Shown: one piece after another, positions 1 through 29,443 of the stretch | Position numbering within the stretch: position 1 is the stretch's first letter | How the letters are laid out: the number at the start of each line of letters is the position of its first letter | From: Felis catus | Lineage: Eukaryota | NCBI RefSeq assembly: GCF_018350175.1 | Contig: NC_058377.1 | Location: 61,876,001 to 61,940,000, forward strand | Direction of reading: 5' to 3' | Length of the DNA: 64,000 bases | Program-made: the position numbers and the translations under genes | The notes under the pieces: model-generated | Database searches by the model: none | What the model was told of the DNA's origin: nothing | The model's input: only the letters and a program-made list of their open reading frames with translations

Positions 1-563
1 GCTGTACTGTCCGTGGACGCTGGTTTTGTCTCCTGGGTTAGATTGTGACTAATACATACATTTCAGTACTGAATACTGCATTCTGAGCCCAGGCCAGGAT
101 GTGGAGACGCTGTGCTGCTCTGGAACACTGGGATCCTTCTCTGGGAGGACTTGTGTTATATTTGGAAATACAAGTGAATCCCTTGCCATCAATGTGAAAG
201 GACCCTTATAAGAAAGTAAGGCATAGGGTGGGAGTACTGAAGCACATATTATACAAATAATCAGAAACAAACTGAACAGAACAGACACTAAAACTTCACA
301 GATGCTTAAACAAGAAACACATTCACAATATCTTCATCAAATAGAGCAGGGATCATGAGTTCATTCATTCAGCAAATGCTTATTGTGTACCTACTGGTAT
401 GCTACAATATTTCAAATAATGTAAAAAAGTAAATTAATTAATTAATTAATAAAGTAGGCACAATTGTGAACAAACTAGTTAAGGATCATAATGCTGGTGT
501 TTCTCTTTTAGTGGTGATGACAGACAGCAAAGAGTAATAAGATAATTTCAGAGCATGCAAAGT

Positions 564-747
564 GAGAGAGAGAGAGTATGCGCATGCGCACAGGTGAGGG
601 ATAGACAGAGGGAGAGAGAGAATCCCAAGCAGGCTCCGTTCTGTCAGCATGGAGCCTGATGTGGGGCTCAATCTTATTACCCGTGAGATTATGACCTAAG
701 CTGAAACACAGTCAGCCACTCAACTGACTGAGCCACACAGGTGCCCC
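564..747 (-). mobile_element. CAN-SINE lacking its A-tail (unit A only)
   Basis: SINE head rc(ggggcacctgtgtggctcag) at 728-747 and the CT-rich segment. The tail side abuts a deletion junction at ~564. Confidence 0.85.
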
Positions 748-759
748 ACAGGCTATTTT

Positions 760-1095
760 AAATAATGCAGATAAGGTAGGAATGCATGTAGCTTTAAAAA
801 TGAGTGTTTGGGTTTGTTTTGTTTTGTTTTTCGTAAACAGTAGTGGAATTACTGGATCATATGGTATTTCTATTTTAGATTTTTGGAAGAATTTCATGCT
901 GTTTTCCACAGTGGCTGTACTGATTTGTATTTCCACCTACAGTGCACAAGGCTTCCTTTCTCTCCACATCATTACCAATACTTTCTATTTCTTGACGTTT
1001 TAATTCTAGGCATCTGGTAGGTGTAAAGTGATATTTTCCTGTGGTTTTGATTTGCAATAACCTAATGATTAGTGATGTTGGACAAATGTGATGTG
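760..1095 (-). mobile_element. Old L1 fragment (ORF2 3' region), ortholog of part of the 15.0-15.9 kb L1
   Basis: gctgttttccacagtggctgtac...gatattttcctgtggttttgatttgca matches the L1 antisense consensus. Confidence 0.75.
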
Positions 1096-2022
1096 TTTCA
1101 TTGCCACATTGAGTTCATAACTTAATGACATAGGGATTGTTTGTTATTTTAATATGCTGAGGGTATTTTGGTAATCTTTTATATATCAATTGACACTGAT
1201 ATGGATGCAGAATTCCTATTCCAGACTATGAAAGATGTATTCAAGTATAGGTATAGACTAAACACATAACAGTGGTCTTCGGCTAATTGATTTATTGTTT
1301 CGCATTTTATTGAACAAATATTATTGATCCCCCAAGATATAGTAGAGGGAAATGACAACCAGACTCCTTCCTTCTTCATAGACCCTAAAGAGAGTTTTGT
1401 GGTGACAGCCTGACAAAATTGTGAGTAAATCCCCTCATTGACAATACCAGAAACATTCCAGGTATAATAAAGGAAAAGGAAGTAATTGGCAAAAATCCAC
1501 TTAGCCAGAGCAAGGTTTGAAATCTTTGGGTGAAAGATTCCAAATCCTGTGTACTATTCTGAAAACAGCTGGTTTCACTGCCTATATTATATTTCATCTC
1601 AGAAAATACTGCTCAATTTCTGAGTTTTAAAGAAAATTTGAAAATGAGTAAATGATGATAAATGGATATGATATCAACTGAGACTACATGTGACAACTGC
1701 TAATTTATGGAAACATCTATAGCTATGTCATGAATAGAGTTCCTCCGTGGGCACACTCCAACCCAAAAGCACTGCCAACTTGCTATAACACAGAGAGCCA
1801 TGCCAGACCCTATAAGACATGCTTTCTGTGATTATGAAGTTGACAATAATGTTATTCATTCATTCTAATGGACAACCAAGACCCAAACACTGGTCTATGT
1901 ACTGGGGATAAAGCAATGATTACAGCTAGGAATGCAAATATGTTTAGGTTGTAAACATTTCAGCAGTATCTGATGATCTACTGAAGAAATGAAAAGAACC
2001 TAGGGTTCTTATGAAAAAGGTC

Positions 2023-2210
2023 GGGGCGCCTGGGTGGCGCAGTCGGTTAAGCGTCCGACATCAGCCAGGTCACGATCTCGTGGTCTGTGAGTTCGAGCCC
2101 CGCGTTGGGCTCTGGGCCGATGGCTCAGAGCCTGGAGCCTGTTTCCGATTCTGTGTCTCCCTCTCTCTCTGCCCCTCCCCCGTTCATGCTCTGTCTCTCT
2201 CTGTCCCAAA

Positions 2211-2268
<58 letters not shown>
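2023..2268 (+). mobile_element. Young felid SINE (SINEC_Fc type) with (GAAA)15 tail; unit A only
   Basis: Head ggggcgcctgggtggcgcagtcgg. TSD gaaaaaggtc at 2013-22 and 2269-78; empty site at 16713-22. Confidence 0.95.
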
Positions 2269-2270
<2 letters not shown>

Positions 2271-2272
2271 AA
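2213..2272 (+). repeat. (GAAA)15 microsatellite
   Basis: Perfect tetranucleotide run forming the SINE tail. Confidence 0.97.
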
Positions 2273-2831
2273 AAGGTCAATGCATTAGGAAAAGAATCAC
2301 AGAGCAGCTAAGCTTATAAGGAATCTTGGCGCTGTGGGATTCAGCAGGAAGGGTTTAGATGGTAGATTTCCGTGCAGAGGAAATGATGTGGCCACAATGA
2401 CAGAAGCACAAAGCACGAAAGAGAGTAGTTAGTGATTCACAATCTGCAGCAGGGTGCAGTAACAACTTTGTCTGAAAAATGTCATAAGTCTAGGAGTAGG
2501 CAGAGATGGTGGGAAAGAGGAACAACTAGGCATTGGCCACACTCAGCTGCAATCCTTGCAGGGGGAGGGTTGTGATAAAGAAAATAGGCATCTCCCAAAT
2601 TGCATAAATACAGCTCAGAAAATAGCCCTTTGAGGAAAGAAACTTCAATCTGCCAGGAGTTTGAGATTGTACACTTACAAGGAGCAGAAATTTAAAATGA
2701 TTTCTCCATATCTCAAAATGGCTAATACATGAGCACAGTGGGTTCTATATCCTAAATGAAAGCGCATGGGGAAATTTTGAATTAATTATCAGGGAACCAG
2801 TTAGCCACATTTCAAACTCCTTCTCAGAATT

Positions 2832-3028
2832 CAGTGGTTCTCCACTGGGGTAATTTATTCCCTCAGGGGCATCATACCTCAGTGTGAGGTATCATACCCT
2901 CAGGGGTGAAGCAGCTGCTGTGTGAAGATCAGGGATGCCACTAAATATGCCACAATGCAGAGGACATCACACTGAAACAAACAGTCATCCAGCTCAAGAT
3001 GGTAATATGGGTGAGATGAAAAATCCTG
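2832..3028 (+). mobile_element. MER20-like hAT DNA element (unit B copy 17275-17489)
   Basis: cagtggttctc...cagggatgccactaaatatgccacaatgcagaggaca...aaaaatcctg matches the recalled MER20 consensus. Confidence 0.7.
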
Positions 3029-4289
3029 CCCTAATTAAAGTGCTAAAAAACAGTTGTGAATTAGAGCTTTTGAATAATGACTGCTGAAGAGATCTGGTGG
3101 GAATTAATGAGTCTTCAGCCCCACGCCACACCCAAGGGAAAGGGATAGGGAAGTACATCCCATTTGAACTTGGGTCAATACAGAGATACCTCAAGGATTC
3201 TACTCAGGAGACATATGTTCCCCCAAAAGTTGGAGAAAGAAAAACATGGCCGACTGGTTCCTGACTCATGCCTCTACATCTACTCTTTTACATCCTTACA
3301 GTTTGCATGACAGACTAATGATGTTCTGAGGAGACTATTTGTTGCAGTACGGGCAGGTTGACCATTTCCTGGATGAGCTGTGTGCTAGAGAGAGCTGTCA
3401 GGGCGTTGCCTTAGCTCCAGTCCACCAGAGCATAGGGCTCTACAGGGGTGATGAGTATTTGGAGGAAGACACAAGCAGTCATACAGAGTAAAGAGACATT
3501 AATTTAAACCAAGTGAAGAAGAAGTAAACTATGGAAAGAGGTTCCACGATAATCTATGAAACACAATGAAAGGGTCAGGTCTAAACATTTCACACACCTA
3601 CTAAACATGACAGCAGCTAAATGAAACACGCATGAATAATGAACCATCCACTTTCCCTTCTCTCTCCTTTCAGAAGAACAAGTCAAAAACCATGGTCAGC
3701 GAGTGAGGGATGGGAGAACAGAAATGGGGTGACTCCGAACCCTGGAAAGTTTGACTATTATGTGAGCCTGGGCATTGTCAATACACACAGGGCTCACCAG
3801 AGGCTGTGTTATCATCTGCAGGGGACCAGAAATCTTAGGAAACTCAGTTTTCATGCAGGGTGGAGGAAAGAACTAGCCTAATTCAATGCAACTAAAGGGG
3901 TCTGAGAAGCAAAATTGGTTATGTTCTGCTCATACATTACTTGTTGGGCTTGGTCAACATTACAAAATCCTGGGATCCCTTAGAAGACAATGAACTCCCC
4001 TCTACCACACCTGCCCATCCTTCACAGATAGTGTCTTGCCCTGGGTAGAGAATTGGACTGGCTCAATAATTGCTGAGTTCTTTTTCAGATACAGGAGCCC
4101 ATGCTTTATTCTCACTGGTCTTTAAGGCTCTCCAGAGACTAAATTCTTTCCGATGCATGTTCAGACACAAAGCCAGCCTCACTTGCTCTCTCCAGAGGCT
4201 TAGAATTAGATAAAAAAGAGCAGGCATGAATTCACTCTAGCAGATACAGAGGAGTGTGTGTGTTGTTCCCCTGGTGACGTTCCTCTGTT

Positions 4290-4304
4290 TGGCTTCTGGT
4301 GAGT
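4290..4304 (+). other. Candidate donor of a 5' non-coding exon of OR51I2-A (copy B GT at 18760)
   Basis: CTG|gtgagt consensus donor, GT at 4299, about 2.8 kb upstream of the CDS and present in both copies. Confidence 0.35.
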
Positions 4305-4449
4305 TCTGCAACCCAATAGTGGGTAGCTAGCTGACTCTTCTGAGGTTTCTTCTAAGAAAGGGTGAAACTGGGTAAGGGGTGGGGAGATAAAGAAGAATAG
4401 AGTGCAGGAAGCTACCAGAATGGAGCTTTTTATTAGAGTGAGCAGAGCA

Positions 4450-4610
4450 GGGGTCCCTGGGTGGCTCAGTTAAGTGCCTGGCTTCAGCTCAAGTCATGAT
4501 CTCACGGCTTGCGAGTTCATGCCCCAAATCAGGCTCTGCACTGACATCTCAGAGCCTGGGGCCTCATTCGGATTCTGTCTCCCTGTCTCTCTGCCCCCAC
4601 TTGTGCTCTC

Positions 4611-4646
<36 letters not shown>

Positions 4647-4674
4647 GAATAAATAATAAACATTAAAAAAAAAC
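4450..4674 (+). mobile_element. CAN-SINE shared by both units (unit A copy)
   Basis: Head, CT run and A-tail present. TSD ttagagtgagcagagca / ttagaatgagcagatca. Confidence 0.92.
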
Positions 4675-5567
4675 TTAGAATGAGCAGATCAGATGCAAAG
4701 TCCGTAGACTTGGGGTTCCCGTTCTGGCTTTGCCACTAACTTGTTAACTCTGGGTCATGCACTGTTTCTCCAGAGAGCTCACGTTGCAGATTCAGTGAAC
4801 TTGGGATCCATGTTCCTATGATTCATTAACATTATAGCAGTTCAGGGTGGAGAATAGGATCAGGGCACAGGCAAATTTCAGAAATCCAGGAAGCAAGGTG
4901 ATCACAAATTACAACACGGATCAAACCCACTGCTGAGCGTGCAGATGTTCAACGTTTGTACTTGTCATATGAATTCTGAGTCAAAGTCTGTAAAAGTCAC
5001 CTGGGAGATTAAAAGTGTAGACAAATCAGCTAGTTCTAAATTTTACAGTGGTTTGGCATAGCCAAGCATGTCTAATCTTTTTCTATTCCTGCTGGTGATC
5101 AGCAGAGCCTCTCTGTTCACTCCCAACTCCTTCTCAGCCTGTCTTTGCCTTCTTGAAGCTCTGTAGCAAACCTTCACAGGCATTCTCTCTTTGACTAGAA
5201 AGTAAAAAGTAAAAGGACTTCAGAGCCATAAAGGATAATATGTGGGAGAACAGTGATAAAGGGGAGGAGACTCGATCTAGACAGAGAACTTGAGCTTCCC
5301 AAGCCCACACGGCCAGGACAAGCCCCATCCAGGGGAAATGCCAGGGCTCCTCACCCCCTCCAGGGCCTGTTCCCCTAAACCACTCTGGCCCCTCTGTGGC
5401 TTCAGAGAAAGGAAAGTTCAGAGCCAGGACAAGGGAACTGGAGTCCCGCGTTGGAGACAAGAACTTCTGCATCTTCTTGGCCACGTGAATCTGCTTTTAG
5501 CCCTTCTCTTTGTTCGATAGTGTCTGAAATCTCCATGCAGAAATGTAAGCTCTGTTTTCCTTCTCAG

Positions 5568-5834
5568 CATCTTCTCCAACACCTCAATGGGTCTCAAAGA
5601 CTGAACTAGACATTAGAGAGTCTTACAGATCCTTACTCAAATGAGGCGTTATCACCTGCTTCCATGGTCTAAGAGGCAGGCTCACTTGGGGGAGCCTCCA
5701 CCTCTGTCATAGATTCACTGGTGACATAGATATAAGTTCCTGGCAGGGTATCTGGCACGTAATGTGCTCAGCAAGGATTGGTTTTCTCTCACTGATTTCT
5801 TTTCTTCACATGCACCCAGACCCCCCCCCACAAG
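5568..5834 (+). other. Candidate internal 5' UTR exon of OR51I2-A (copy B 20045-20312)
   Basis: Strong acceptor ctctgttttccttctcag|c and donor AAG|gtgagc, both conserved in copy B. Confidence 0.35.
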
Positions 5835-7040
5835 GTGAGCCACTACTGGAAATGATAAAGGGTGTGCTCCTGGGGTGTCCGGTAGCCTTTTTCCCACAAA
5901 TGCTACAATTCAGATCCCCACACGCACGATGGCTTTCGCCCTGTCCTGCACAGAATCCTGCTCACTGAAGCCTGTTTTCTTCTGCCTTCTCTTTCTGTTC
6001 CTTTCACTTTTGCTCACTCCTCTTTTTTTTTTTTACCCCAAATTTCTTCAAGGAGGGTTGTATGAAAAATGGTAATTGTAGTCAGGTGGGAGAAAAAAGA
6101 AGTGAATGGGGTGGTTCATTCATAGATCTGAAGCGTCACGTGTCTGGAGTAAGATAGGTGTGCACAGACTCGTCTCTAGGACGCGAAGGGATCCAATCAG
6201 TCACACAGAGAAGTGGCCACTGACTTCTTGAGAATCACAAGGCAATCTGAGCCATATACTACTCCCAAAATTCCAGGAATATTCTGAGTGGTAATGTGGC
6301 ATAGTCCTCATTGGAGCATTTCTGTGGCCTTCAGATACTTGGGTCTCCAAGCTCCTCCACCCTAATCAGCCAGGAATCTAAGATGCTGTGACCTTGCTTT
6401 GTTAGGTTTGGCAGAGGAAAGAGGAAGGGAAAATATTTCTGGAGTTCTTCTCCCAAAGATGGGTGCCTGAACCTGAAACAGTTTTGTCAGACAAGAAGCC
6501 TTTTGGCTGTCACTGTCTTCATCCATCATTAGGGAATGAACATGACAGGGTTTCCAAAATATCAGAATGACAGGAGAATTCAATATGTAAACACTCTCAC
6601 AAAGAAATCATTGTGGCTTAACCTGTAGAACGAGGTCAGTCATGTGTCATTATACAAAAGCTGAGCAATGCAGTACATGAGGCTTTCTATGTGGTGAGGG
6701 GTTAATAGCGTGAGTTATTGATAACTCAAACTGCCAGTGTCCTTTATAATAACTACCCATGAATTGCACTTAACATATTTCTAGTCAAAGTTAAAGTTGC
6801 TTCAGGGACACCTTAAAATGGTAGATAATATTGCTTAATATAACATGACTCAAATGTTTACTTTGTACCTAGTTGATATTTGTGAAGCTTTACCAATGTC
6901 TTCCTTCATTTATAAAACAGAAGGTTACTAGCCACGCCTATAGCCTGATGATCCTACAATATGAAGAAAAGAAGAATGCCTGCGTTTTCCCCTAACCAAT
7001 GATTTCAGGAAGGCATCAGTTTCCACCTGTGTAGACTTTA

Positions 7041-7081
7041 CCCCTGTGTGTCTTACTCCCTGGCTTCTTGCCCTCTAGTAG
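7041..7081 (+). other. Splice acceptor of the OR51I2-A coding exon (tandem TAGTAG)
   Basis: Pyrimidine tract tcttactccctggcttcttgccctc followed by TAG/TAG (AG at 7077-78 and 7080-81), 62-65 nt before the ATG. Identical in copy B (AG at 22431-32 and 22434-35). Confidence 0.6.
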
Positions 7082-7142
7082 GGGCAACTCTCAGAAGTCC
7101 CCAAGTTCCAATCCTGAAAAGTGCCCTGGCCTCCCCCCGACC

Positions 7143-8081
7143 ATGGGACTGTTCAATGTCACTCATCCTGCTTCCTTCCTCCTGACCGGCATCCCTGGTC
7201 TGGAGAGCTCTCACGCCTGGCTAGCAGGGCCCCTCTGTGTCATGTATGCTGTGGCCCTCGGAGGCAACACTGTGATCCTGCAGGCCGTGCGAGTGGAGCC
7301 CAGCCTCCATGAGCCCATGTACTACTTCCTGTCCATGCTGTCCTTCAGTGACGTGGCCATGTCCATGGCCACACTGCCCACCGTGCTCAGAACCTTCTGC
7401 CTCAATGCCCGCAACATTGCCTTCGATGCCTGCCTGATTCAGATGTTTCTCATTCATTCCTTCTCCATGATGGAGTCGGGCATTCTGCTGGCCATGAGCT
7501 TTGATCGCTATGTGGCCATTTGTGATCCCTTGCGTTATGCTGCCGTGCTCACCAATGAAGTCATTGCCAGAATAGGCATAGCTGTGGCTGCTCGGAGCTT
7601 CATCATCCTCCTTCCCCTTCTCTTCCTCTTCAAGAGGCTGCCTATCTGCAGATCCAATGTTCTTTCCCACTCCTACTGCCTTCACCCAGACATGATGAAG
7701 CTGGCCTGTGCTGATATCACTATCAACAGCATCTATGGATTCTTTGTTCTTGTATCTACCTTTGGCATGGACATGTTTCTTATCTTCCTCTCCTATGTGC
7801 TCATTCTGCACTCGGTCATGGCCATCGCTTCCCGAGAGGAACGCCTGAAAGTTCTCAACACATGCGTGTCACATATCTTGGCTGTGCTTGTGTTTTACGT
7901 ACCGATGATTGGGGTCTCCACAGTGCACCGCTTTGGGAAGCATGCCCCGCGCTATGTACATGTCCTCATGTCCAATGTTTACCTCTTTGTACCTCCTGTG
8001 CTCAACCCTCTCATTTACAGCGCCAAGACAAAGGAGATCCGCCGAACCATTGTCCGTATGTTTCGGCACATGAAAACATGA
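7143..8081 (+). CDS. OR51I2: Class I olfactory receptor, OR51I2 copy A (312 aa, intact)
   Basis: ATG at 7143 (accATGg), TGA ends at 8081. OR motifs LHEPMYYFLS, MSFDRYVAICDPLRY, HSYCLHPD, KVLNTCVSH, PPVLNPLIYS; N-glycan site NVT. The N-terminus MGLFNVTHPA matches my recollection of human OR51I2. The ORF-track start at 7068 is a TTG in the intron pyrimidine tract. Confidence 0.95.
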   Translation: MGLFNVTHPASFLLTGIPGLESSHAWLAGPLCVMYAVALGGNTVILQAVRVEPSLHEPMYYFLSMLSFSDVAMSMATLPTVLRTFCLNARNIAFDACLIQMFLIHSFSMMESGILLAMSFDRYVAICDPLRYAAVLTNEVIARIGIAVAARSFIILLPLLFLFKRLPICRSNVLSHSYCLHPDMMKLACADITINSIYGFFVLVSTFGMDMFLIFLSYVLILHSVMAIASREERLKVLNTCVSHILAVLVFYVPMIGVSTVHRFGKHAPRYVHVLMSNVYLFVPPVLNPLIYSAKTKEIRRTIVRMFRHMKT

Positions 8082-8143
8082 CTTTCATGCTTGCCTTTAA
8101 TATCTGATGTTGACTGTAGCCATAAGTCTTCATCTGTGGTGTC

Positions 8144-8186
8144 ATTGTCATCATCATCATCACCATTGCCATCATCATCATCTTCA
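8144..8186 (+). repeat. Imperfect (CAT)n in the OR51I2-A 3' UTR
   Basis: gtcattgtcatcatcatcatcaccattgccatcatcatcatc; shorter in copy B. Confidence 0.8.
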
Positions 8187-10191
8187 TATCACGAACAATG
8201 AGACAGATTGTGTGGTGGGGGAAAAGTAAAAGATCAGGACAGGGAGCTACACAATTTGTACATAAAACATATGAAAGTATATTCACAATATACTCAATGG
8301 CATTCACAGAAAAGTGAAAATCAGGGACACTTGAATGATATGACACAACTTGAAAGGAAGATCCATCTAAACTATTCATTTCCCACACAAAAAAATGTCT
8401 CATTGATGTAGTGATAATTAATACATTAAGACTTTAAAAATGCCAGTATCTGTTAGAAATTACTAATGTTCATTAATTCATGTTACCTTCCCAACAATCT
8501 CATGAGGTGTAAAGAATTAAGTTTGTTTTTCAGAGTAACACAGGTGATAGGTGTCCCAGATGAGACTCAGTCCTTGTCTGTCTCCACTCTGAGTATTCTA
8601 ACCCCTACCAATACTGTCTCTCTGTTGAGTTAGTCTGACTGCTAACATTACCACTGTTGTCCTTCCCTTCACCTCCACTGTTTCAAATTCACCAAGTGAA
8701 ATTTGATGAACGGTCAGAACCTGCCATAAGATATATGAATAAATGGGACTCAGGGGAACTGCTCAAAGCTGAGTCTAGAAGAAACTCCATATCTTCTCTG
8801 TGTCCTTCATCTGCTCACCAATCTGTCCTCCCACAGGGAAAACAATATTCAATATCTGAGCCATAGATCCTTGTACTTTTGGACATTGGACTAAGTAAGT
8901 GCATGATTTCTCTTCATTTTCTTTCCTGAGATTGTAATTGTTTCCCACACTATGAGCTAAGACATGTCAAAAATATGCCTTTCTATGATTTCTAGCTACC
9001 AGGGCTTAGGAAAGGCAGAATAGAGAATTTATGGTTTAGATCTTATAAAATAATTATTTTCAACCTTCTATTAAAATGGTTTTCTTCACACTCTTTCCTT
9101 GATAGCAGGGAATCTCCTTGGCCATACTTGATTGCTCTCAGATGATGTATGTGCTTACATCTAGACTAAATTAAAGGAGGTGCCCTGTGGAGACTGACCT
9201 ACTCACCAAAAATATTGGGTTAGAGACCTCAGCGCAGCTGAGCATAAAGTTATCCAGAGTTTTCTCTCTGTGAAGCTCTCCTGAAGGAATATGAAGGAGA
9301 TGTATCAGGTGCCAGAGGGAGGGACCCATTTCTGAATGGAAACATTTTAAGTATTTGGGATCCCGGTTTCCATATATGCCCATAAGTGAAATACAGGACT
9401 CCTAATGTAAGTGCTCTTATCCACTAAATAAGCTAATTTACAAGCGTGACTGACCACCAATGCTCAGCATGTTTTCAAATGGAAAATAATGAGTCAGACT
9501 GTGGTCTTCAGTCAGTTTAAATAGTGACCTTATTGATTCTTGCAAAAAGCTCTATATTGCCAAATAAAATAATAATAGTAACAATTTGTAATGCCCTGAG
9601 CGCAGTGTTGAGAGAATTTACAAATAAAAAACAAGACTTGGGGAAATTGCCATTGATTCCCATCCTGGAGAGAGAGGGGAAGACAGTCCCTATGACCACA
9701 GACCTGACATTGACAGCCCAGGGTATAAAGGAGAAAGGACAGGGAGCACTGGAATAGGAGTCTCCTCTAAGCGCTGCTGGCTCCTCTCCACTTAATTTCC
9801 TCCCTTCTTTCTCCATCATCAATTAGAAAAGCGGCTTGTCTGAGGGGATAGAGAAAAGGTACTTTTAGGTTTCTCTTCCTCGTATGAGGCAGGTGCCATA
9901 ACATAGAGGCACTCCTGAGTCTTTTATCCTGAGAAGGCCAAAAACAAGCCCAATTTTCTGCTTTACATAGAAACTCTCTTTGCCTCTTTCTTCATAACAA
10001 GCTTTTTTTTTTAACTCAACATTTTTCCCTATTGAAATGGGGAAATACCTGGATTTTGGCCAAGTAATAAGGAACAGAGAGCATTTTATATTTATTTTGG
10101 TTTAGGCCCTTAAAGTCCACCTCAAAAATTAAGTCACCTTAGAAATAAACACTAATCATGGTTCAGCTAAGTTTGGGTGGGGACAATATTG

Positions 10192-10194
<3 letters not shown>

Positions 10195-10230
<36 letters not shown>
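10195..10230 (+). repeat. (TG)18 microsatellite, unit A only
   Basis: Direct read. Confidence 0.97.
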
Positions 10231-10234
<4 letters not shown>

Positions 10235-10263
10235 GCGGGCTAATCTCTGAGTAGCAAAGGTCA

Positions 10264-10616
10264 TGCCGATCAGGGAAAGGGTTAGCAGTAAGCAGGGGTA
10301 GATATGGGACCCTCAGGGAGGCTGACTGTAGCAGTGGCAGGGTTTGGGGGCAAAAAAGGATCAACGCATTCCAGACCTGCCTATGTTAGGCACCATGGAT
10401 GGACTCTCACAAACGGTTCTTGATAAGGTCCAATAAAGAGTCAGGGATAAAAATCCCTGGTGACAGCCCAGTCAGGACCCCTCTCACTCTTGAGAACTTT
10501 GTTACTTTCACTCAATAAACTACCGCTTTGCTCAGTCGTGGCTGTCCGGGAGATTCATTCCTGGACTCAGTGAGACAAGGACCCTAGTGTCTCCCACCTT
10601 GTGGTATAAATTGGCA
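10264..10616 (+). mobile_element. Solo LTR-like element (ERV1-like), unit A only
   Basis: TGCCGA...TTGGCA inverted ends, AATAAA at ~10431 and ~10514, absent from unit B. No TSD found. Confidence 0.6.
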
Positions 10617-10668
10617 TTGCCTGTCAGCGGCTCATATCTCATCCTCCAGGGCCTGTGTGGGGTAGGTC

Positions 10669-11304
10669 AGATGAGGAGAACAAAGGCAAGAGAAATGTAG
10701 CTGAAATTAAACCTCTTTACAGCTTGCAGCCCACTGATATGTACCTGAAACATGCAGACCATGACCTTCCTCAAGGAACTCATGGCTGCCTGAGTGCCTT
10801 AATGTTTATGTTTTATTAAAGACTGAAGGTAACATTATCCTTTTTGTAAATATTTATTTATTTTGGGGAAGAACACAAGGAGGGGAGGGGCAGAGAGAGA
10901 GGGGGACAGAGAATCCAAAGCAGGCTTTGTGCTGACAGCAGGGAGCCCGATGCGGAGCTTGAACTCATGAACCGCAAGATCATGACCTGAGCCGAAGTCA
11001 GATGTTCAACTGACTGAGACACCCAGGTGCCCCTAAAGGTAACCATATCTAAACAGCATCTAGCCCTGCAAGGTCCTCAAAGTCTTGCTTTAAAATTCTG
11101 TAGAAACTTACTTTATCTCTATCCACCCTCCTTCCACCAACTTAGAAGTAGACAATCAGTCACTCCTCACATTCCCAGTGCAGCTGTTTCTGCTCACAGG
11201 TCCTGTCCCCATGCTTTAATAAAAATCACCTTTTTGCACCCAAAATGTCTCAAGAATCCTTTCTTGGCCATTAACTCTCAAGCACAAACCTTCAAATCCT
11301 ATCA
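10669..11304 (+). mobile_element. Solo ERV1-type LTR with nested SINE, unit A only
   Basis: Ends (a)GATGAGG...CCTATCA; 4-bp TSD GGTC; AATAAA at ~11218. Unit B has a single GGTC empty site at ~26098. Confidence 0.75.
10841..11033 (-). mobile_element. CAN-SINE nested in the LTR
   Basis: TSD aaggtaacattatcc / aaggtaaccatatct. Confidence 0.9.
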
Positions 11305-12530: not shown

Positions 12531-12599
12531 GCTCAGGTGTAGGGAGCACTGGCAGGCAGGAGTCACATCACTCTCACTGTACTCTCCCGCCTGAAGCAG

Positions 12600-15025: not shown

Positions 15026-15044
15026 TGATGAATATGACAGAGTT

Positions 15045-18910: not shown

Positions 18911-19069
18911 GGGGTCCCTGGGTGGCTCAGTCAGTTAAGTGCCTGACTCCAGCTCAAGTCACGATCTCACAGTTTGCGAGTCCAAGCCCCAAATCGGGCT
19001 CTGCACTGACATCTCAGAGCCTGGGGCCTCATTCGGATTCTGTCTCCCTGTCTCTCTGCCCCCTCTTGA

Positions 19070-19107
<38 letters not shown>

Positions 19108-19135
19108 GAATAAATAATAAACATTAAAAAAAAAC
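18911..19135 (+). mobile_element. CAN-SINE shared by both units (unit B copy)
   Basis: Same site and same two TSD variants as the 4450 copy. Confidence 0.92.
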
Positions 19136-21399
19136 TTAGAATGAGCAGATCAGATGCAAAGTCCCTGGACTTGGGGGTCCTATTCCGGCTTTGCCACTAA
19201 CTTGTTAACTCTGGGTCATGCACTGTTTCTCCAGAGAGCTCACGTTGCAGATTCAGTGAACTTGGGATCCATGTTCCTATGATTCATTAACATTATAGCA
19301 GTTCAGGGTGAAGAATAGGATCAGGGCACAGGCAAATTTCAGAAATCCAGGAAGCAAGGTGATCACAAATTACAACACGGATCAAACCCACTGCTGAGCG
19401 TGCAGATGTTCAACATTTGTACTTGTCATATGAATTCTGAGACAAAGTCTGTAAAAGTCACCTGGGAGATTAAAAGTGTAGTCAAATCAGCTAGTTCTAA
19501 ATTTTACAGCGGTTTGGCATAGCCAAGCATGTCTAATCTTTTTCTATTCCTGCCCTTGATTCCAAATGCTGGTCATCAGCAGAGCCTCTCTGTTCACCCC
19601 CAACTCCTTCTCAGCCTGTCTTTGCCTTCTTGAAGCTCTGTAGCAAACCTTCACAGGCATTCTCTCTTTGACTAGAAAGTAAAAAGTAAAAGGACTTCAG
19701 AGCCATAAAGGATAATATGTGGGAGAAGAGTGATAAAGGGGAGGAGACTCGATCTAGACAGAGAACTTGAACTTCCCAAGCCCACACGGCCAGGACAAGC
19801 CCCATCCAGGGGAAATGCCAGGGCTCCTCACCCCCTCCAGAGCCTGTTCCCCTAAACCACTCTGGCCCCTCTGTGGCTTCAGAGAAAGGAAAGTTCAGAG
19901 CCAGGACAAGGGAACTGGAGTCCCGCATTGGAGACAAGAACTTCTGCATCTTGTTGGCCACGTGAATCTGCCTTTAGCCTTCCTCTTTGTTCGATAGTGT
20001 CTGAAATCTCCATGCAGAAATGTGAGCTCTGTTTTCCTTCTCAGCATCTTCTCCAACACCTCAATGGGTCTCAAAGACTGAACTGGACATTATAGAGTCT
20101 TACAGATCTTTACTCAGATGAGGTGTTATCACCTGTTTCCATGGTCTAAGAGGCAGGCTCACTTGGGGTAGCCTCCACCTCTGTCATAGATTCACTGGTG
20201 ACATAGATATAAGTTCCTGGCAGGGTATCTGGCACGTAATGTGCTCAGCAAGGATTGGTTTTCTCTCACTGATTTCTTTTCTTCACATGCACCCAGACCC
20301 CCCCCACACAAGGTGAGCCACTACTGGGAATGATAAAGGATGTGCTCCTGGGGTGTCCGGCAGCCTTTTTCCCACAAATGCTTCAACTCAGATCCCTACA
20401 CGCACGATGGCTTTTGCCCTGTCCTGCACAGAATCCTGCTGTCTGAAGCCTGTTTTCTTCTTTTTCTTCTCCCTTCTCTTTCTGTTCCTTTCACCTTTGC
20501 TCACTTCTCTTCTGTTTTTTTTTTTCCTTCCATGAGTTTTTTATGATAATTGCAGTCAGGTGGGGGAAAATAGAGATGAATGGGGTTGTTCAGTCCTGGA
20601 TCCCAAGCATCACGTGTCTGGAGAGAGGCAGGTATGCACAGACTGATTCTAGGACCAGAAAGGATGTAATCAGTAACACAGAGAATGGCCGCATACTTCC
20701 TGGGAACCATAAGATGATCCAAATTATAAATTTTCCCATAAACTCTGTAATATTCGCCTTGTAATAATGCTGAATTAAGGGTCATCCAAGAATTTCTATG
20801 GCCTTTGTATACCTGGGGCTCTCAGGTCCTTTTTCTTCCATCCTGATCAGCAAGGATTCTGAGATTGTGCTGTGACCATGCTTTGTTAGGTTTGAGAGAG
20901 GAAGGGGAAACAAAATATTTACGGAGTTTTCTCCTATAGGAGGGTGCCTTAGCCTGATACTGTTTTGCCAGATGAAAAGTCTTCCAGCCCTCTCTGTCTT
21001 CATCCATCATGAGGGGCTGGAGGTGAAAGAATTCCCAGAACATCAGAATGCTGGAGGTTACAAAATGTAATCACTCTCACAGAGAAATGGCGGTGGGTTA
21101 GCCTCTGGGATTGGAGTCAGGAACACATGTCATGGTAGAATAGCTGAGTAATAGTACATGAGGGTGCGTCTATGTTGTGAGGGGTTAATAATGTGGGCAC
21201 AGGAGTCTACACACATGTAAGTGACATGCTGTTGATGGTCGAACTCTGCATGTACATTGTGTGTTGTGTGCATACAAAATCTGCATATATGTCCGTGTGG
21301 ACTGAGTGTATGAGCACCACAGGGCACATGCATGTTCAAGAGTGTGAATGTCAAGAATAAGAGTTGAATATATCTGTGCAATAAAAGTAAGTGTGTGAG

Positions 21400-21546
21400 G
21401 GGCTCCTGGGTGGCTCAGTCAGTTAAGTTTCTGACTTCGGCTCAGGTCATGATCTCCTGGTTCATGAGTTCAAGTCCCGCGTTGGCCTCTGTGCTGACTC
21501 CTTCAGATTCTGTGTCTCCCTCTCTCTCTCTTCCCATCCCCAGATA

Positions 21547-21598
<52 letters not shown>

Positions 21599-21634
21599 TA
21601 AAAAATAAGTACTCATTTAAAAAATTAAAAAAGA
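21400..21634 (+). mobile_element. CAN-SINE, unit B only
   Basis: TSD aagtgtgtgag at 21389-99 and 21635-45. Confidence 0.9.
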
Positions 21635-22496
21635 AAGTGTGTGAGAGACAGCAGTGCAAGTGCAAGGTGCTCTTTCTAAGAGCAGGAATGGGATCCTGGT
21701 GAGGCTGTTGTGAAGGTACATGTCTCTGAGATAAAGGATATTTTGAAAGTATATATGACTATGTAAGGGGGTGAAAGCCTGGTGTTTGGTGCAATGCCCT
21801 TCCACAAGCTGAATGGTAGCATAACTATAGAATATTTAAGAGAGAAGTAATAATGTTTCCAAAACGAGGAACACCTTTGTGCATTTCCACAACGTTTTCT
21901 TGTTCTTTTTGTTTTGTTCTTTTGGAGCACTTCTGCCAATAAAAGGCTGGTGTCCAGAGGTGGTCAATTTTCTCCATAGCCCATGGACCCTTCCCCTCTC
22001 TCACATAGCACATCATCATTCAAACTAGCTCTCAGAAATGCTGTGATTAGTCGAAGACACCTCTGGTTAACCATTTTCAGGAAAATGTTTAATACTTCCA
22101 AGAGCTATTGTAACTCTAATTCCTGGTTGTCTTTACAATGACAACCTATGGATTATACTTCACATATTTGCATTCAATGATGCTCTTAAAACTAATTGAA
22201 ATATAGAAAATTTTCTTTGTACCTAAGTAATATTTTTGAAGCATTCTCAATGTCTTAATTTTCTTCATAAAATAGAGGAAAATTAGCCCTTCCTGGGGCC
22301 TGCTGACCATAAAATGAAGAAAGAAAGTTTGCCTACATTTACTTCTAACCAGTGATTTCAGGAAGGCATCAGTTTCCAACTGTGTAGACTTCACCCCCTG
22401 TGTGTCTTACTCCCTGGCTTCTTGCCCTCTAGTAGGGGCAACTCTCAGAAGTCCCCAAGTTCCAATCCTGAAAAGTGCCCTGGCCTCCCCCCGACC

Positions 22497-23435
22497 ATGG
22501 GACTGTTCAATGTCACTCATCCTGCTTCCTTCCTCCTGACCGGCATCCCTGGTCTGGAGAGCTCTCACGCCTGGCTAGCAGGGCCCCTCTGTGTCATGTA
22601 TGCTGTGGCCCTCGGAGGCAACACTGTGATCCTGCAGGCCGTGCGAGTGGAGCCCAGCCTCCATGAGCCCATGTACTACTTCCTGTCCATGCTGTCCTTC
22701 AGTGACGTGGCCATGTCCATGGCCACACTGCCCACCGTGCTCAGAACCTTCTGCCTCAATGCCCGCAACATTGCCTTCGATGCCTGCCTGATTCAGATGT
22801 TTCTCATTCATTCCTTCTCCATGATGGAGTCGGGCATTCTGCTGGCCATGAGCTTTGATCGCTATGTGGCCATTTGTGATCCCTTGCACTATGCCGCCTT
22901 GCTCACCAATGAAGTCATTGCCGGAATAGGCATAGCTGTGGCTGCTCGGAGCTTCATCACCCTCTTTCCCCTTCTCTTCCTCTTCAAGAGGCTGCCTATC
23001 TGCAGATCCAATGTTCTTTCCCACTCCTACTGCCTTCACCCAGACATGATGAAGCTGGCCTGTGCTGATATCACTATCAACAGCATCTATGGACTCTTTG
23101 TTCTTGTATCCACCTTTGGCATGGACGTGTTTCTTATCTTCCTCTCCTATGTGCTCATTCTGCACTCGGTCATGGCCATCGCTTCCCGAGAGGAACGCCT
23201 GAAAGTTCTCAACACATGCATGTCACATATCTTGGCTGTACTTGTGTTTTACGTACCGATGATTGGGGTCTCCACAGTGCACCGCTTTGGGAAGCATGCC
23301 CCACGCTATGTACACGTCCTCATGTCCAATGTTTATCTCTTTGTACCTCCTGTGCTCAACCCTCTCATTTACAGCGCCAAGACAAAGGAGATCCGCCGAG
23401 CCATTGTCCGTATGTTTCGGTGCATGAAAACATGA
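22497..23435 (+). CDS. OR51I2: Class I olfactory receptor, OR51I2 copy B (312 aa, intact)
   Basis: ATG at 22497. Same motifs as copy A; 18 nucleotide and 10 amino-acid differences from copy A. Confidence 0.95.
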   Translation: MGLFNVTHPASFLLTGIPGLESSHAWLAGPLCVMYAVALGGNTVILQAVRVEPSLHEPMYYFLSMLSFSDVAMSMATLPTVLRTFCLNARNIAFDACLIQMFLIHSFSMMESGILLAMSFDRYVAICDPLHYAALLTNEVIAGIGIAVAARSFITLFPLLFLFKRLPICRSNVLSHSYCLHPDMMKLACADITINSIYGLFVLVSTFGMDVFLIFLSYVLILHSVMAIASREERLKVLNTCMSHILAVLVFYVPMIGVSTVHRFGKHAPRYVHVLMSNVYLFVPPVLNPLIYSAKTKEIRRAIVRMFRCMKT

Positions 23436-24616
23436 CTTTCATGCTTGCCTTTAATATCTGATGTTGACTGTAGCCATAAGTCTTCATCTGTAGTGTTATT
23501 GTCATCATCACCGTCATCATCTTCAATCACAAATAATAAAATAGATGTGTGTGGTGTGGGAAAAGTAAAAGATCAGAAAGTGGAGATAACACAAAAGAAA
23601 TGGTAGTACAATCAGCAAACCTCAGTGGCATTCATAGAGAGGTGAATGTTGGTGATTAGATAACATTTTCCTGAGGAAGATTGATGTAAGCTAGGAATCA
23701 TTTTTTATAACAGAGCTATTACCAATATTATAATAACTAATAAATTGAGTGTCATCACTAAAAGTGTCTGGTTCTATAAGAAATTGATGTGATTTAATGC
23801 ATTTAACCTTCATCACAATCTCATGAGGTGTAGAGAATTAAGTCAGTTTTTCAGAATAATATAGATGATAGGTGATTCAGATGAGACTCAGTTCTTGTAT
23901 ATCTCCACTCTGAGTGTCTAACCCCAACAAGGACCACCCTCTGTCGAGTTGGCCTCACTATTAACATTACCACTGTTATCCTTCCCTTCACCATCACTGT
24001 CACCTTGAACACTCATGAGTGCTTCAAAACACTCAAAGCACAAAGTGAAATTTGATGTATTGTCAGAACTTGCTATACGATGTATGACCCCAGAAAACTG
24101 AAAGAGGCTGACATCTAGAAGAAACTCCAGATTCTTCTCTGCTTCCTTCATCTGCTCACTAAACCATCCTCTCACAGGGAGGTTCAATATCTGAACCATA
24201 GACCTTTTTTCTTTTTGACATTGTACTAATAAAATGATTTTTCTTTGTCTTCCTTTCTTGGGATTTTAATTTTCTTCTACATAATGATGTGGTAACAGAT
24301 GTCAAAAATCATGTCTTTCTAGGATTTCTAGCTAAAAAGCCCTGGGAGAGGCAATAGAGAATTTATGACTTAGACACTAGAAAATAATTATTTTGCACAT
24401 TCCATTAGATCGGCTTTCCTGCATTCTCTTTCCTTGATACCAGGGAGGTAGGACACAATAAGAAATTCCTTGGCAGAATTAGAGTACTCTCAGATGAGGT
24501 TTGGGCTTACATCTAGACTAAGTTAAAGGAGATGCCCTATTGAGATCGACCTACACACAAGGGAAACTGGGCCAGATACCCCAGCACAGCTGAGCATAAA
24601 GTTATCTAGAGTTTTC

Positions 24617-24724
24617 TTTTTTTTAATATGAAATTTATTGTCAAATTGGTTTCCATACAACACCCAGTGCTCATCCCAACAGGCGCCCTTCTCAATACCC
24701 ATCACCCACCCTCCCCTCCCTCCC
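24617..24724 (-). mobile_element. 108-bp L1_Fc 3' stub, unit B only
   Basis: tttttttt-aatatgaaatttattgtcaaattggtttccatacaacacccagtgctcatccc..., the same 3' end as the L1s at 29.4 and 38.0 kb. Confidence 0.9.
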
Positions 24725-24933
24725 TAAGGGAATATGAAAGTGAAGTATCAGGTGCCAGAGGGAAGGAACTATTTCTGAATGGAAATGATATAAGCATTTG
24801 GGATTCTGGTTCCATAAGTGAAATAAGAGAATCATAATGTCAGTGCCCTTGTAACATCACTCAGCATGAGTTCAAATGGGAAATAATGAGTGAGACTATG
24901 GTTTTCAGTCAGTTTAAGTAATATATATATACA

Positions 24934-25045
24934 TTTTTCTTAAGTAGGCTCCACACCCCATGGAGGGCTTGAACTCATGACCCTGAGATCAAGACCTGAG
25001 CTGAGAACAAAAGTCAGATGCTTAGCTGAGCCACCCAGGCACCCC
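24934..25045 (-). mobile_element. Short CAN-SINE, unit B only
   Basis: SINE head and B-box region, no CT tract. Confidence 0.75.
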
Positions 25046-25682
25046 AATAATGACCTTTTTGATTCATACAAGAAGCACTGCATCAGTTAATAATAAGAGT
25101 AGTAATTTATTATGCCTTAAGAGTCAGATTAAATTATTATATAGGTGCAAAGGCAAGGGTTGGGGACCCTTCTATATATGAAAATGAGGAAAACGTTCTC
25201 TGATTCCAATCCCAGGGAGAAGAAGCAGACGACCTTTTCACTACAGGCCTAACATTGACAGCCAAGGGTAGAAAGAAGAAAGGACAAGGAGCACTGGAAT
25301 AGGAGCCTCCTATACGTGCCGCTGGCTCCTCTCCACTTTATTTCCTCCCTTCTTTCTTCATTTTCAGTTACCAATGTGGCTTGTTTACAGGGGATAAGGA
25401 AGAAACATTCCTATGTCTCTCCTCCTCTTATGAAGTACTTCGGAAGAACTTAGGGCCACTATTGTGTCTTCTGTCCCCAGAAGGTGGAGATTAAGCCCTG
25501 CTTTTTGCTAAAATGGAAACTTTCTCTTGTCTTTCTTTATTTAACAAGCTTTTCTTTAAACTCAACCTTTTTCCCTATTGACATGGGAAAATACCTGGAT
25601 TTGGCCAACTAAAAAGAGAAAAGAATATTTTACACTTCTTTTATTATATACCCCTTAGTTCTGCCTTAGAAAATTAGGCCAC

Positions 25683-25932
25683 GGGGCGCCTGGATGGCTC
25701 AGTAGGTTAAGCGTCTGACTTCGGCTCAGGTGTCGTGACCTCGCAGTCCATGGATTCGAGCCTCGCCTCGGGCTCTGTGCTGGCAGCTTGAAGCCTGGAG
25801 CCTGCTTCGATTCTGTGTCTCCCTCTCTTTCTGCTCCTCCCCCATTCACACTCTGTCTCTATCTTTCTCAAAAATGAATAAACATGAAAAAAGAAAACAA
25901 GTGTGAGTTAAAAAAAAAAAGAAAAAGAAAAA
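25683..25932 (+). mobile_element. Felid CAN-SINE, unit B only
   Basis: TSD agaaaattaggccac / agaaaattaggttac. Confidence 0.92.
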
Positions 25933-26900
25933 AGAAAATTAGGTTACCTAAGAAAACTACATACTGAACTTGGCTCAGCTAAGTTTGCAGGGGAACAATA
26001 CTGAGGTTTGTAGGGGAAAATGTCTGAGTAATAAAGGTCATGCTTTTGCATTGCCTGTCAGGGGTGCATAGTTCATCCTCCAGGGCCTGCATTGGGCGGG
26101 TCAATAAAGAGATGGAACTAGAACAAGACTTACAGTAGGGTAGGATTCCTGACCCCCGTGCCTCATAGTAAGACTCACAGTAAAATCGATACAACTAGAA
26201 TGTGATGCAGAATTGAGAAAACACACCTCCACGTTGTGTGGCCTTCCATGCAATTAATTTCTGTGTGAGCCCAGGAAGTGGGAGAACCTTCAGAAATGAG
26301 AGCAGGGTAGCAAAGGGCTATGACCAGGCCCCTGGGCATGGCTGACCATCAGCCCCACTTTCTCAGTCCCACTGAGGTTCACCCAACCTCCAGGAAGCCA
26401 TCTCCACACTTGATCAGTTCTGCTAGGATGGGACAGCTTTGCTGCTGCTGTTGTGATTCAGCAGGATGAGTAGCGCTCTTCCCCAGAATCAGGGGTACAG
26501 ACGATCTTTCTTCTGGGTTACGGTTCTCCCCAGCAAGGGCATTGCCTCGTCAGGAGAATATCCGACCCTCTTTTGTCAGCTGCACATATTTTCCCACCGT
26601 GCTGATGCAGGGTGGACTCAGGACCCTGCACCACTCTGTTTCATGTTCAGGAAAGAGGGGATCCATGTGTTGGTGGCTGTGCACTGAGCACAGGAATGCC
26701 CTCCAGACAGCTCAGTGGGGTGTGTGCCCTGAAGAGGGCTCAAGTTTCATAGAAACAACAAACAGGTCATGAAGTCAGCAGTCACTTTGTGAATTACTAT
26801 CTTCCCAACTTCAAACAAGTAATTGGGTCCCTGCTGAGCAATTACCCCGTGCAGGGGAAGAGGAGGACCTCTTATCAAGCAGCACCTGAACACGAATGTC

Positions 26901-27590
26901 TGTTGGGAAGGTCATGGAGAAGTCGTGACTGCTGGTTGACCCAAGAGCTGGACCCCAGCAGTGGGGGCTCCTCACCCCTGATGCTGTCCTTGGAATGTGC
27001 ATAGAGTTTGTCTTCCCTCTCCCTAACGCAGCCCCAAGGAAATGACCTTGAGATAGTCATGTCTTGTTGAAACCTTCTATAAAATATACATGACTGAGCC
27101 CAGGTAAAACCTCCATAGAAACTTAAATTTTTTTTCTTAATGTTTATTTAGTTTTGAGAGAAAGAGAGACAGACACAGAGAGAGCACAAGTGGAGGAGGG
27201 GCAGAGAGAGAGGGAGACACAGAATCCACAAAATCCAAAGCAGGCTCCAGGCTCTGAGCTGTCAGCACAGAGCCCAACACAGGGTTTGAACCCACGAACT
27301 GCGAAATCATGACCTGAGCTGAAGTCAGATGCTTAACTGACTGAGCCACCCAGGCGACCCCCTCTATATAAACTTTTAAGATTCTGGCAGCAGGTGTGAA
27401 GATGTACTGGCCTTGGGTCATCCAGGACAAACCTAGTATGTAAGTTTCCTTGTTAAATCTGCCACCTACAGATCTGGGGCGGCCTGCATCTTTCTCCGGG
27501 TTCTTCCTGTCCTCAGAATATGGGGGTCAGTTTCAAATAATACTTGGGAACCTCTAGAGGATCTTTCAAGCCAAAGTCAGAGGCCAACAG
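26901..27590 (+). mobile_element. Carnivore ERV1-type solo LTR (unit B) interrupted by a SINE
   Basis: First 103 bp are near-identical to the 12111 LTR; the remainder is a much more diverged match. Confidence 0.7.
27128..27361 (-). mobile_element. CAN-SINE nested in the unit B LTR
   Basis: TSD cctccatagaaactt / cctctatataaactt. Confidence 0.9.
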
Positions 27591-29443
27591 CTTGTTCAAT
27601 GGATTTGTCAGATTAGGTGTAGGTGTATGTGGTTTGTATTCATATTTCTCATATGAAGTGTTTTTATTCCTTTTTCTTTTCTGCTATTACCCGTGGAAAA
27701 CTTCTTTATCAAATATATGTAAGAAAATAAATAGAGGAGATACTTTATCTGTTAAATGATTATTTGATTTAGTCTGTTTTGTACATGTGTCCCTCAGGAG
27801 TCAGCTGACACCACCTAAACGTTGGCTATTTCGTTGAACTTTGCATAAGCCCCCAACATTCTTCACAAAGAAAGTATAGCCCCCAGCCAAAACTTATGAT
27901 ACATTTCTGGAGTCATGCATCACTCATCCAAAGCATGGATGTGTGGCAAGCTTTATGAAAAATTTAGATTATAAACAGATCTCAATTAATAGAAATGCAA
28001 CAGACAAAGCTGGTTATTGGACAATCTTGATCTTACAACATTTACGGCCAGTAATGGTGTTAATAAAAAAATTTTTTTCTCAATCTCCATTTTTCCTAGC
28101 ACAGATATTAGTCACTATCCTTTATTCAATCCTGAGTCTAAAAAAAGCACTTTTTTTTTAGTGGAGTGGATATAATTCTGGTGACACACTATTTTCCTTA
28201 CAATCTTTACTTCTGGTTTGCTTAAAAGAAACACAGCTCATTCCTTTATCCCTCCAAAAGTATTTATTGTGACTTACAACATGGGAGGCACCATATTCGT
28301 TTTAAGGGCTCCGTGATTATGAAATTTAGTCATTAGGGTCTGTGAGAGAAAACTGCCTGAAGGGAGATGGTAGGGTTATGAAAAAGTCTCGCAAGATGTG
28401 TTTACTAACTATTCCTTTTAAATACCCCCTTGCATAGCTAGGCCACATTGGGAATGACTGCAGTGTGACAGAGAACGTGAAACTGTAGTTAACGTTTATG
28501 AGAACTGTGCAGAGCAGCATGAAGCCTGGGAACCACAAGGCTATTTTTTAGGGCAAATATCCCATATTACAACCTGGGAGTAAGAAGCTTCCTGAATGGC
28601 TGTCTGTATTCTTACCCCAGAAGACAGTCTGTAAGCAACAGTGGCTCCGAGTCAACTTTAAATACTAGTCTTGGTGGTCAAGCATATTGTCCCTGACTGA
28701 GACAAAATCCTCTGTGAATATTAAACAGCTTAGAAGAGACAGAGTGTTAAGTGGCTTTTCTGTATTGGACATTTGACATGACATTGTATAAACTAAATCT
28801 ACGGTGGATTTTAACACAAAATTCTGGAGTCAGCAATTTCATAAACAAATCTTACATGAAATGTAGAAGCAAGTAAAATAAATCTGAAACTCAAAGAAAT
28901 TCCTGCGAAACATATATCCAAAACTTCATACGCCTGGGTTACAAACACTGGAATGGAAATAGCTCTCATTTCATTTATTCAGCAAGGATGGAGATTAATG
29001 ATTACATTCTATTACCATCCAACATTTAGCATCCAAATATGTGCAAGAACGTTTTTACAAATAATGTAGAAAAACAAGTTTACAGTTATTAGGGAGAAAG
29101 AAAGTTAAAAGACACATCTTAGGTATAAATTGGACAATTAATTGTACATGAGTTTTAAATCAATCCTGGTTTATTTTCAATACACTTTCTTAACTGTGTT
29201 AGCCTTCAAACCACACGAAATATTATAAACAGGTTTATAAATGTATCATTTATTTAGATATCAGATTAAATACTAACCTTACCAGTTTGAACACATGCAA
29301 TTTATGTCCAAAAGAAAAGTTTTCTTTTAACATACTGTTAATTAGTAACTTGATCAATATTTTTTAGGCAGCAGTAAAACATATACATACATACATGAAT
29401 AAATGTAAAGGATTTTTTCTATATTAATGAATTAAGAACTTTT

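Follow-up and report, generated by a model that had tools for sequence, protein, structure and literature searches.

Evidence for repeated gene conversion between the tandem OR51I2 genes of the domestic cat

Tandem mammalian paralogs in the primate 17p13.3 olfactory receptor (OR) cluster and in the gamma-globin pair HBG1/HBG2 reportedly carry patchy gene conversion tracts, like those that we describe here for the OR gene OR51I2 of the domestic cat (Felis catus). Those duplicates are said to be younger than the OR51I2 pair, and we know of no residue pair in them that recurs across orders. The window that we analyzed is a stretch of 64,000 nucleotides (positions 61,876,001 to 61,940,000 of NC_058377.1, forward strand), from whose first base the coordinates below are counted. 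It belongs to a class I OR cluster, and its upstream neighbors match the F. catus OR51I1, OR51Q1, and OR51Q1-like proteins.

Three further parallels come from published reports. ATP1A1 of Leptodactylus (bioRxiv 10.1101/2020.08.04.234435) is likewise a converted tandem pair in which a few copy-specific amino acids are kept across species; there, 12 residues have tested function and modeled selection, whereas in OR51I2 two to four residues are known from sequence, and the position in the cow differs. The primate red and green opsins (PMC3924837) are likewise an old tandem pair of sensory receptors with converted noncoding DNA and distinct tuning sites. The opsins have a broad "peak of divergence," whereas OR51I2 has isolated residues and no synonymous peak, and much of its noncoding DNA has escaped conversion; the nearby OR51Q1 pair does have a peak. 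The avian gamma-c odorant receptors, for which the term "partitioned gene conversion" is used (bioRxiv 10.1101/2025.11.14.688425), are likewise mosaics of homogenized and diverse sequence with variable pocket regions. They form a large class II family of birds, in contrast to the two-copy mammalian class I system studied here, with its kilobase-scale noncoding islands and mapped junction. Publications on OR51I2, judged from the title or the start of the abstract, contained nothing on its evolution, and searches of the literature on OR conversion, concerted evolution, and felid OR genomics brought up nothing on this locus. In the searched passages of three papers on OR birth (PMC4158756, PMC13696124, and bioRxiv 10.64898/2026.08.03.742608), the word "conversion" is absent. 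The process is known already; the case appears to be new, and its notable part would be a pocket-adjacent residue split that is echoed by OR51Q1.

Near-identical islands in the OR51I2 duplication

Judging from its sequence, the cat locus is very probably an old tandem duplication of OR51I2 that has undergone repeated nonallelic gene conversion. We base this reading on the divergence strata, the unique tract sequence, the old flanks, and the grouping of the twin proteins by family, all of which bear out the ancient, repeatedly homogenized duplication proposed in a preliminary description of the window. Two intact open reading frames of 312 amino acids, each a single-exon seven-transmembrane gene, lie on the plus strand at 7143 to 8081 (copy A) and 22497 to 23435 (copy B), 15.4 kb apart. 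Both are OR51I2: the best protein match is a tiger OR51I2-like protein (99%), human OR51I2 matches at 89%, and the next nearest OR elsewhere in the cat genome has 72% identity to OR51I2. OR51I1 lies on the minus strand about 20.7 kb upstream, and OR51I2 adjoins it on the opposite strand. Self-BLAST and anchored alignments agree on two collinear, head-to-tail units with one intact OR51I2 each. Unit A covers 1 to 12530 and extends about 1603 bases beyond the upstream end of the window, where the homology starts that is matched by 12531 onward; unit B covers 12531 to 27589 (both on the plus strand). The junction at 12530/12531 falls just 3' of an old solo long terminal repeat (LTR) and has only GCT in common with both the point upstream where the duplication starts and the point downstream where it ends (3-bp microhomology).

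Within the units, three islands are nearly identical (all on the plus strand). Island 1 (copy A, 2480 to 6019; copy B, 16921 to 20505) is upstream noncoding DNA, 97% identical between the units, and contains a shared CanSINE, a short interspersed nuclear element (SINE). Across the tract as first drawn (2480 to 6090 versus 16923 to 20564), there were 99 substitutions in 3594 columns (97.2% identity) and 9 indel events. Island 2 (6991 to 8135 and 22344 to 23489) comprises about 150 bp of upstream sequence, the coding sequence (CDS), and about 55 bp downstream, with 22 substitutions in 1145 columns (98.1% identity). Island 3 (11351 to 12213 and 26141 to 27003) is unique noncoding sequence that extends about 100 bp into the LTR; it aligns without gaps and has 9 substitutions in 863 columns, exactly as first counted, with 3 differences in the 789 columns of its core (11403 to 12191). 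The flanks, pooled over eleven blocks, differ at 982 of 4330 sites (22.7%; Kimura two-parameter distance, 0.27); the pool omits three intermediate blocks (2 to 422, 1701 to 2022, and 2266 to 2479), which were treated separately. The units and islands stand as originally described, and their extent needed correction: the duplication begins some 1.6 kb before the first base of the window, its internal junction lies at 12530/12531, and tract 1 ends near 6019, not 6090.

The reported abruptness of the switches in identity was also evident. Differences per 100 columns outside versus inside the left edges were 19 versus 4 (at 2478), 32 versus 3 (6992), and 31 versus 4 (11351); inside versus outside the right edges, they were 6 versus 22 (6019), 3 versus 15 (8137), and 2 versus 23 (12214). 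The longest identical run between the units was 494 columns, whereas 1000 permutations gave none longer than 173, and no difference between A and B occurs across 7041 to 7532 (492 bp, inside island 2). Sharply bounded tracts that are far more similar than their flanks, beyond chance, are the mark of conversion, and this is the pattern that we observed.

A four-state segmentation yielded blocks near 0.4 to 0.9%, 3.5%, 12%, and 21 to 27% divergence, and at least four divergence levels imply several events of different age. The islands themselves are layered, from about 0.4% to 3.7% divergence; the island 3 core differs in divergence from island 1 (P = 5e-6), and island 1 is internally overdispersed (P = 3e-5). 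An older stratum found by the segmentation (1710 to 2477, plus strand, versus 16399 to 16920) has 64 differences in 523 columns (12%) and is likely an eroded earlier conversion tract.

Could the assembly have produced this mosaic by misassembly or cross-polishing of two old paralogs? Islands 1 and 3 are known from this assembly alone. The islands are nonidentical (130 substitutions), layered, and CpG enriched, however, and separately annotated felid assemblies yield twin proteins 5 to 7 residues apart. The contig spans 115 Mb, and no N bases occur within 1 to 27620. Of the 31 differences in islands 2 and 3, 14 are CpG transitions; of the 690 in three flank blocks, 77 are (P = 4e-6). Such an excess is expected of real young mutations. 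We regard a chimera as very improbable. Less probable still is that the duplication is young, with islands conserved by purifying selection between flanks that evolve fast. Island 2 does span the CDS, and the islands (45 to 52% GC) are richer in GC than most flanks (31 to 44%; the upstream blocks and the LTR end have 45 to 51%). Against this idea, neutral sequence within the islands is homogenized too, including synonymous sites, the SINE, and the LTR end; the latter two, at 91 to 99% identity, are not explained by purifying selection. A young duplicate could not have gained old SINEs of its own, and flank divergence together with private old repeats already contradicts a recent origin.

Genome searches with 2480 to 4400, 4700 to 6050, and 11351 to 12213 recovered two copies only, besides short matches to old repeats. 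We rejected the possibility that the islands are young transposons, as the tract sequence is unique apart from the two copies. Under repeated conversion, the islands would have been copied from one unit to the other time and again; stretches that are still similar would keep pairing and converting, and those disrupted by insertions and indels would have escaped. Several island edges are close to a private insertion or a simple repeat; examples are an A-only SINE at 2022, a B-only insert before 22134, A-only LTR pieces before 11326, and, near 8140, a CAT repeat. Among 9 local ORs, the converted pairs have the highest GC content at third codon positions (0.66 to 0.69, against 0.56 to 0.65 in the others), a difference that may or may not stem from GC-biased conversion. 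The left edge of island 2 (6992 to 6996; 22345 to 22349) coincides in both copies with a branch-point-like CTAAC. A search of 1 to 28000 against Rfam matched no family, no CTCF-like motif was found, and the only strict O/E-like motif lay outside the islands.

Repeats and the age of the duplication

The old solo LTR (12111 to 12530, plus strand; 420 bp) terminates unit A, and its counterpart, split by a SINE, terminates unit B (26901 to 27589). Outside island 3, the two LTR copies differ at 88 of 311 sites and are about as unlike each other as unrelated genomic copies (68 to 74% identity). The range of this LTR family across species would bound the age of the duplication. Duplication by LTR-LTR recombination was considered and rejected, since the sequence that precedes unit A contains no LTR (score, 27 versus a shuffled maximum of 31).

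Of the CanSINEs that we noticed in the units, the one in island 1 (4449 to 4680, plus strand; 18910 to 19140 in B) is alone in being common to A and B. Unit B also carries a private, short, old-type CanSINE on the minus strand (24946 to 25049), tentatively assigned to subfamily I by extra bases at the place of the subfamily motif; the element is degenerate, and the match was made by eye. Subfamily I is dated to 45 to 60 million years ago in PMC4084570. The shared CanSINE is without those extra bases and resembles the younger subfamily II; its best other genomic matches are at 83 to 86%, and its age is therefore blurred. It may have been carried between the copies by conversion.

The neutral distance between cat and dog is about 0.2. 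Since the flank divergence is 0.27, we infer that the duplication occurred at or before the cat-dog split and would be at least as old as that split. A tree built from the CDS alone had been predicted to date the duplication far too young, and the protein tree did place the split inside Felidae, where copies A and B form one clade with hyenas as the sister group.

Twin proteins in other mammals and residues 155 and 200

To follow the pair beyond the cat, we examined protein clusters of 22 to 195 members through the 15 members listed for each. Among these, two OR51I2 records were present in the lion, tiger, snow leopard, leopard, jaguar, and Canada lynx and, outside the felids, in the ferret, European mink, zebu, and yak; a repeat look-up added Geoffroy's cat as the only further carnivore. 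Metagenomes scanned for mammalian loci with OR51I2 yielded none. These paired copies, like the retained residues described below, go beyond the preliminary description. Its statement that OR51I2 is single copy in human and mouse agrees with the mouse rows in the tables of PMC7160942, which also give a single copy in rat, chimpanzee, and orangutan; no human entry was among the rows. In a quick maximum likelihood tree of 67 proteins, with Shimodaira-Hasegawa-like approximate likelihood ratio test (SH-aLRT) values as the sole support, felid A and B formed one clade (SH-aLRT, 97) beside hyenas, and the mustelid and ruminant copies stayed within their own groups.

We then counted sites at which two pairs group by species, by type, or in a crossed manner. 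Between families, 19 to 26 sites grouped by species, 2 by type (3 for lynx versus zebu or yak), and none were crossed; the counts were 19/2/0 for cat-ferret and cat-European mink, 23/2/0 for cat-zebu and cat-yak, and 25/2/0 for ferret-zebu. The two constant type-grouping sites are residues 155 and 200, with a split of I155 plus F200 versus T155 plus L200 that is common to the felid, mustelid, and bovid pairs. The expectation that paralogs cluster within species in the tracts thus held between families at the protein level and failed within Felidae, where grouping is by copy. Felid copy A is marked by residues 143, 155, 157, and 200 (R143, I155, L157, and F200 in the cat), with 143 reverted in the tiger/snow leopard record. 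Copy-specific residues therefore persist amid homogenized sequence, four of them across felids and 155/200 across three families. T302 is carried by every one of the 5 felid A proteins and by 5 of the 8 B-type felid proteins, whereas hyenas, dog, and ferret lack it, a distribution that suggests A-to-B copying after the felid radiation.

Codon 155 (7605 to 7607, Ile in A; 22959 to 22961, Thr in B) and codon 200 (7740 to 7742, Phe in A; 23094 to 23096, Leu in B), both on the plus strand, correspond to positions 4.56 and 5.40 in an alignment to PDB 8F76. They adjoin, and do not coincide with, the propionate contacts of OR51E2: residue 155 is one residue before F155 (4.57), and residue 200 is one residue after G198 (5.39). 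According to two preprints, position 4.57 of OR51E2 tunes chain length (bioRxiv 10.1101/2022.12.20.520951), and N155 of the class II receptor OR1A1, at 4x56, influences odorant potency (bioRxiv 10.1101/2023.11.16.567230). T155/L200 is the state of single-copy primates and rodents. Among 181 OR51I2-like proteins, the types at 155/200 were TL (108), IF (31), TM (23), TF (9), IL (6), SL (3), and ML (1).

Taken as a whole, an old duplication with repeated conversion, in which selection probably keeps residues 155 and 200 apart so that the twins would detect different odorants, is in our judgment likely. Conversions that erase the 155/200 difference would be removed, or the difference would reevolve after each sweep. 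For selection on 155/200 as such, we put the case at slightly better than even.

Several observations weigh against this picture. Putative flank orthology, like the description of islands 1 and 3, draws on one assembly, and the dating leans on an approximate cat-dog distance and a tentative SINE assignment. Within Felidae (cat versus lion, lynx, and tiger), 0 sites group by species and 4 to 6 by copy. According to the tables of PMC7160942, the order in the cow is OR51I1, OR51I2BP (T155/L200; annotated as a pseudogene), and OR51I2 (I155/F200), 10 kb apart. The T155/L200 copy is thus proximal to OR51I1 and the I155/F200 copy distal, the reverse of the cat, which argues against simple orthology. 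The same tables give the dog a single, pseudogene copy, and two hyenas have only one protein each among the members listed. Each of the two residue changes takes one C-to-T transition, and both are met again in other proteins; elephants carry IF, and the multicopy sets of tenrec and sloth are without the split. The cat has no synonymous divergence peak, with 0 synonymous differences in codons 134 to 204. Finally, the felid-wide L160 and the feliform A149 are present in both copies 15 to 18 bp from codon 155, so an ancient difference at 155 would need tract ends very near it.

The cow order and spacing and the single copy in the dog fit a history in which feliforms, arctoids, and ruminants duplicated the gene independently, conversion homogenized each pair, and one copy of each underwent T155I and L200F in parallel. 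The same simple transitions are seen again in elephant, rhino, armadillo, sloth, and horse OR51I2C, and separate OR51I2 duplications exist in tenrecs, sloths, and marsupials. Yet an origin at the cat-dog split or earlier is indicated by the divergence of the cat flanks and by the old-type SINE that only one unit carries, and 155/200 are in phase in all three lineages, which implies selection even under this scenario. We consider independent origins throughout possible and clearly short of even. Our own leaning is toward a duplication shared with mustelids, as far as the sequences allow, and the ruminant pair may well have arisen separately and acquired its changes in parallel. Under either history, shared or parallel, one copy has repeatedly been pushed to I155/F200, or neutral toggling has carried it there.

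The neutral version accepts conversion and treats 155/200 as tolerant toggling sites whose match is due to chance plus leftover unconverted patches. Consistent with it, 91 sites have a minor residue at a frequency of at least 10% among 162 proteins (a count inflated by kinship), the mixed types TF and IL occur, and neither residue directly contacts propionate in OR51E2. However, the 31 IF proteins exceed the mixed types combined (counts that are not independent), and residues 143, 155, 157, and 200 persist in Panthera, Lynx, and Felis although the 492 bp upstream are identical in the cat. The divergence peak of OR51Q1 around a pocket histidine also argues against neutrality, which we hold to be unlikely. 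Residues 155 and 200 are, on the selective reading, probably kept different, and the twins would detect different odorants.

Several records bear on the types of the copies. The fused Iberian lynx model (464 amino acids) has A followed by B, as in the cat. That model (P0070), the jaguarundi record (P0063), and P0081, P0083, and P0010 mix A and B types and are either natural recombinants or assembly or annotation artifacts. T155/F200 occurs in dog, raccoon dog, and sea otter. A second horse copy of OR51I2 with I155/L200 lies 163 kb away in the PMC7160942 tables. The Panthera isoform X2 records (P0062, P0066, and P0071) are spliced RefSeq models of 308 amino acids with an altered C terminus; no exon matching this isoform was found in the first 32 kb of the window.

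The OR51Q1 pair and the wider cluster

Downstream of the OR51I2 units, the window holds three more intact OR51-family genes on the minus strand (32712 to 33656, 47213 to 48157, and 57256 to 58203), with 73 to 79% mutual CDS identity and no sign of conversion. The segments 29483 to 29994 versus 38045 to 38547, and 24617 to 24724, are 3' fragments of young L1 elements, about 90% alike, and are ordinary repeats.

A tandem OR51Q1 pair lies about 31 to 38 kb upstream, at 1642 to 2589 and 8700 to 9653 of the upstream sequence L004 (61837642 to 61845653). The cat copies are 97.5% identical over a 905-bp CDS core, and their flanks fail to align. Between the cat and two bears, 13 to 15 sites group by species and 5 by copy (7, 106, 108, 306, and 314), the latter located in the termini and the third transmembrane helix (TM3). 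In the core DNA, 7 of 14 differences fall in 30 nucleotides that surround the codon of His107, which corresponds to pocket residue 3.33 (0 of 100000 permutations). The combination L106/G108 is found in 64 of 120 OR51Q1 proteins and I106/T108 in 44; tenrec, elephant, mole, bears, and cats have representatives of both. The dog has the same tandem pair with similar spacing, and a comparison by eye shows that the copies correspond in order to those of the cat in their termini and TM3 motifs. As exceptions, Geoffroy's cat and two spotted-hyena records are homogenized through TM3, and the mole and tenrec pairs differ at 35 to 40 core residues. At the level of sequence, the OR51Q1 pair repeats what is seen in OR51I2 in a cleaner form: its divergence peaks at TM3 (103/106/108), and many placentals share this peak and the copy-specific termini. 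Somewhat short of an even chance, in our view, is the broader proposal that conversion has kept old OR51 pairs of mammals (OR51I2, and OR51Q1 apparently since early placentals) near identical over tens of millions of years, with selection preserving or re-creating a pocket switch of two to three residues.

OR counts that reconcile gene trees with species trees would score such pairs as young, lineage-specific births. If they are kept by selection, residues 155/200 of OR51I2 and 103/106/108 of OR51Q1 would be minimal candidate ligand-tuning sites in orphan class I receptors. Conversion would then, if this is true, reveal which residues tune a class I receptor.

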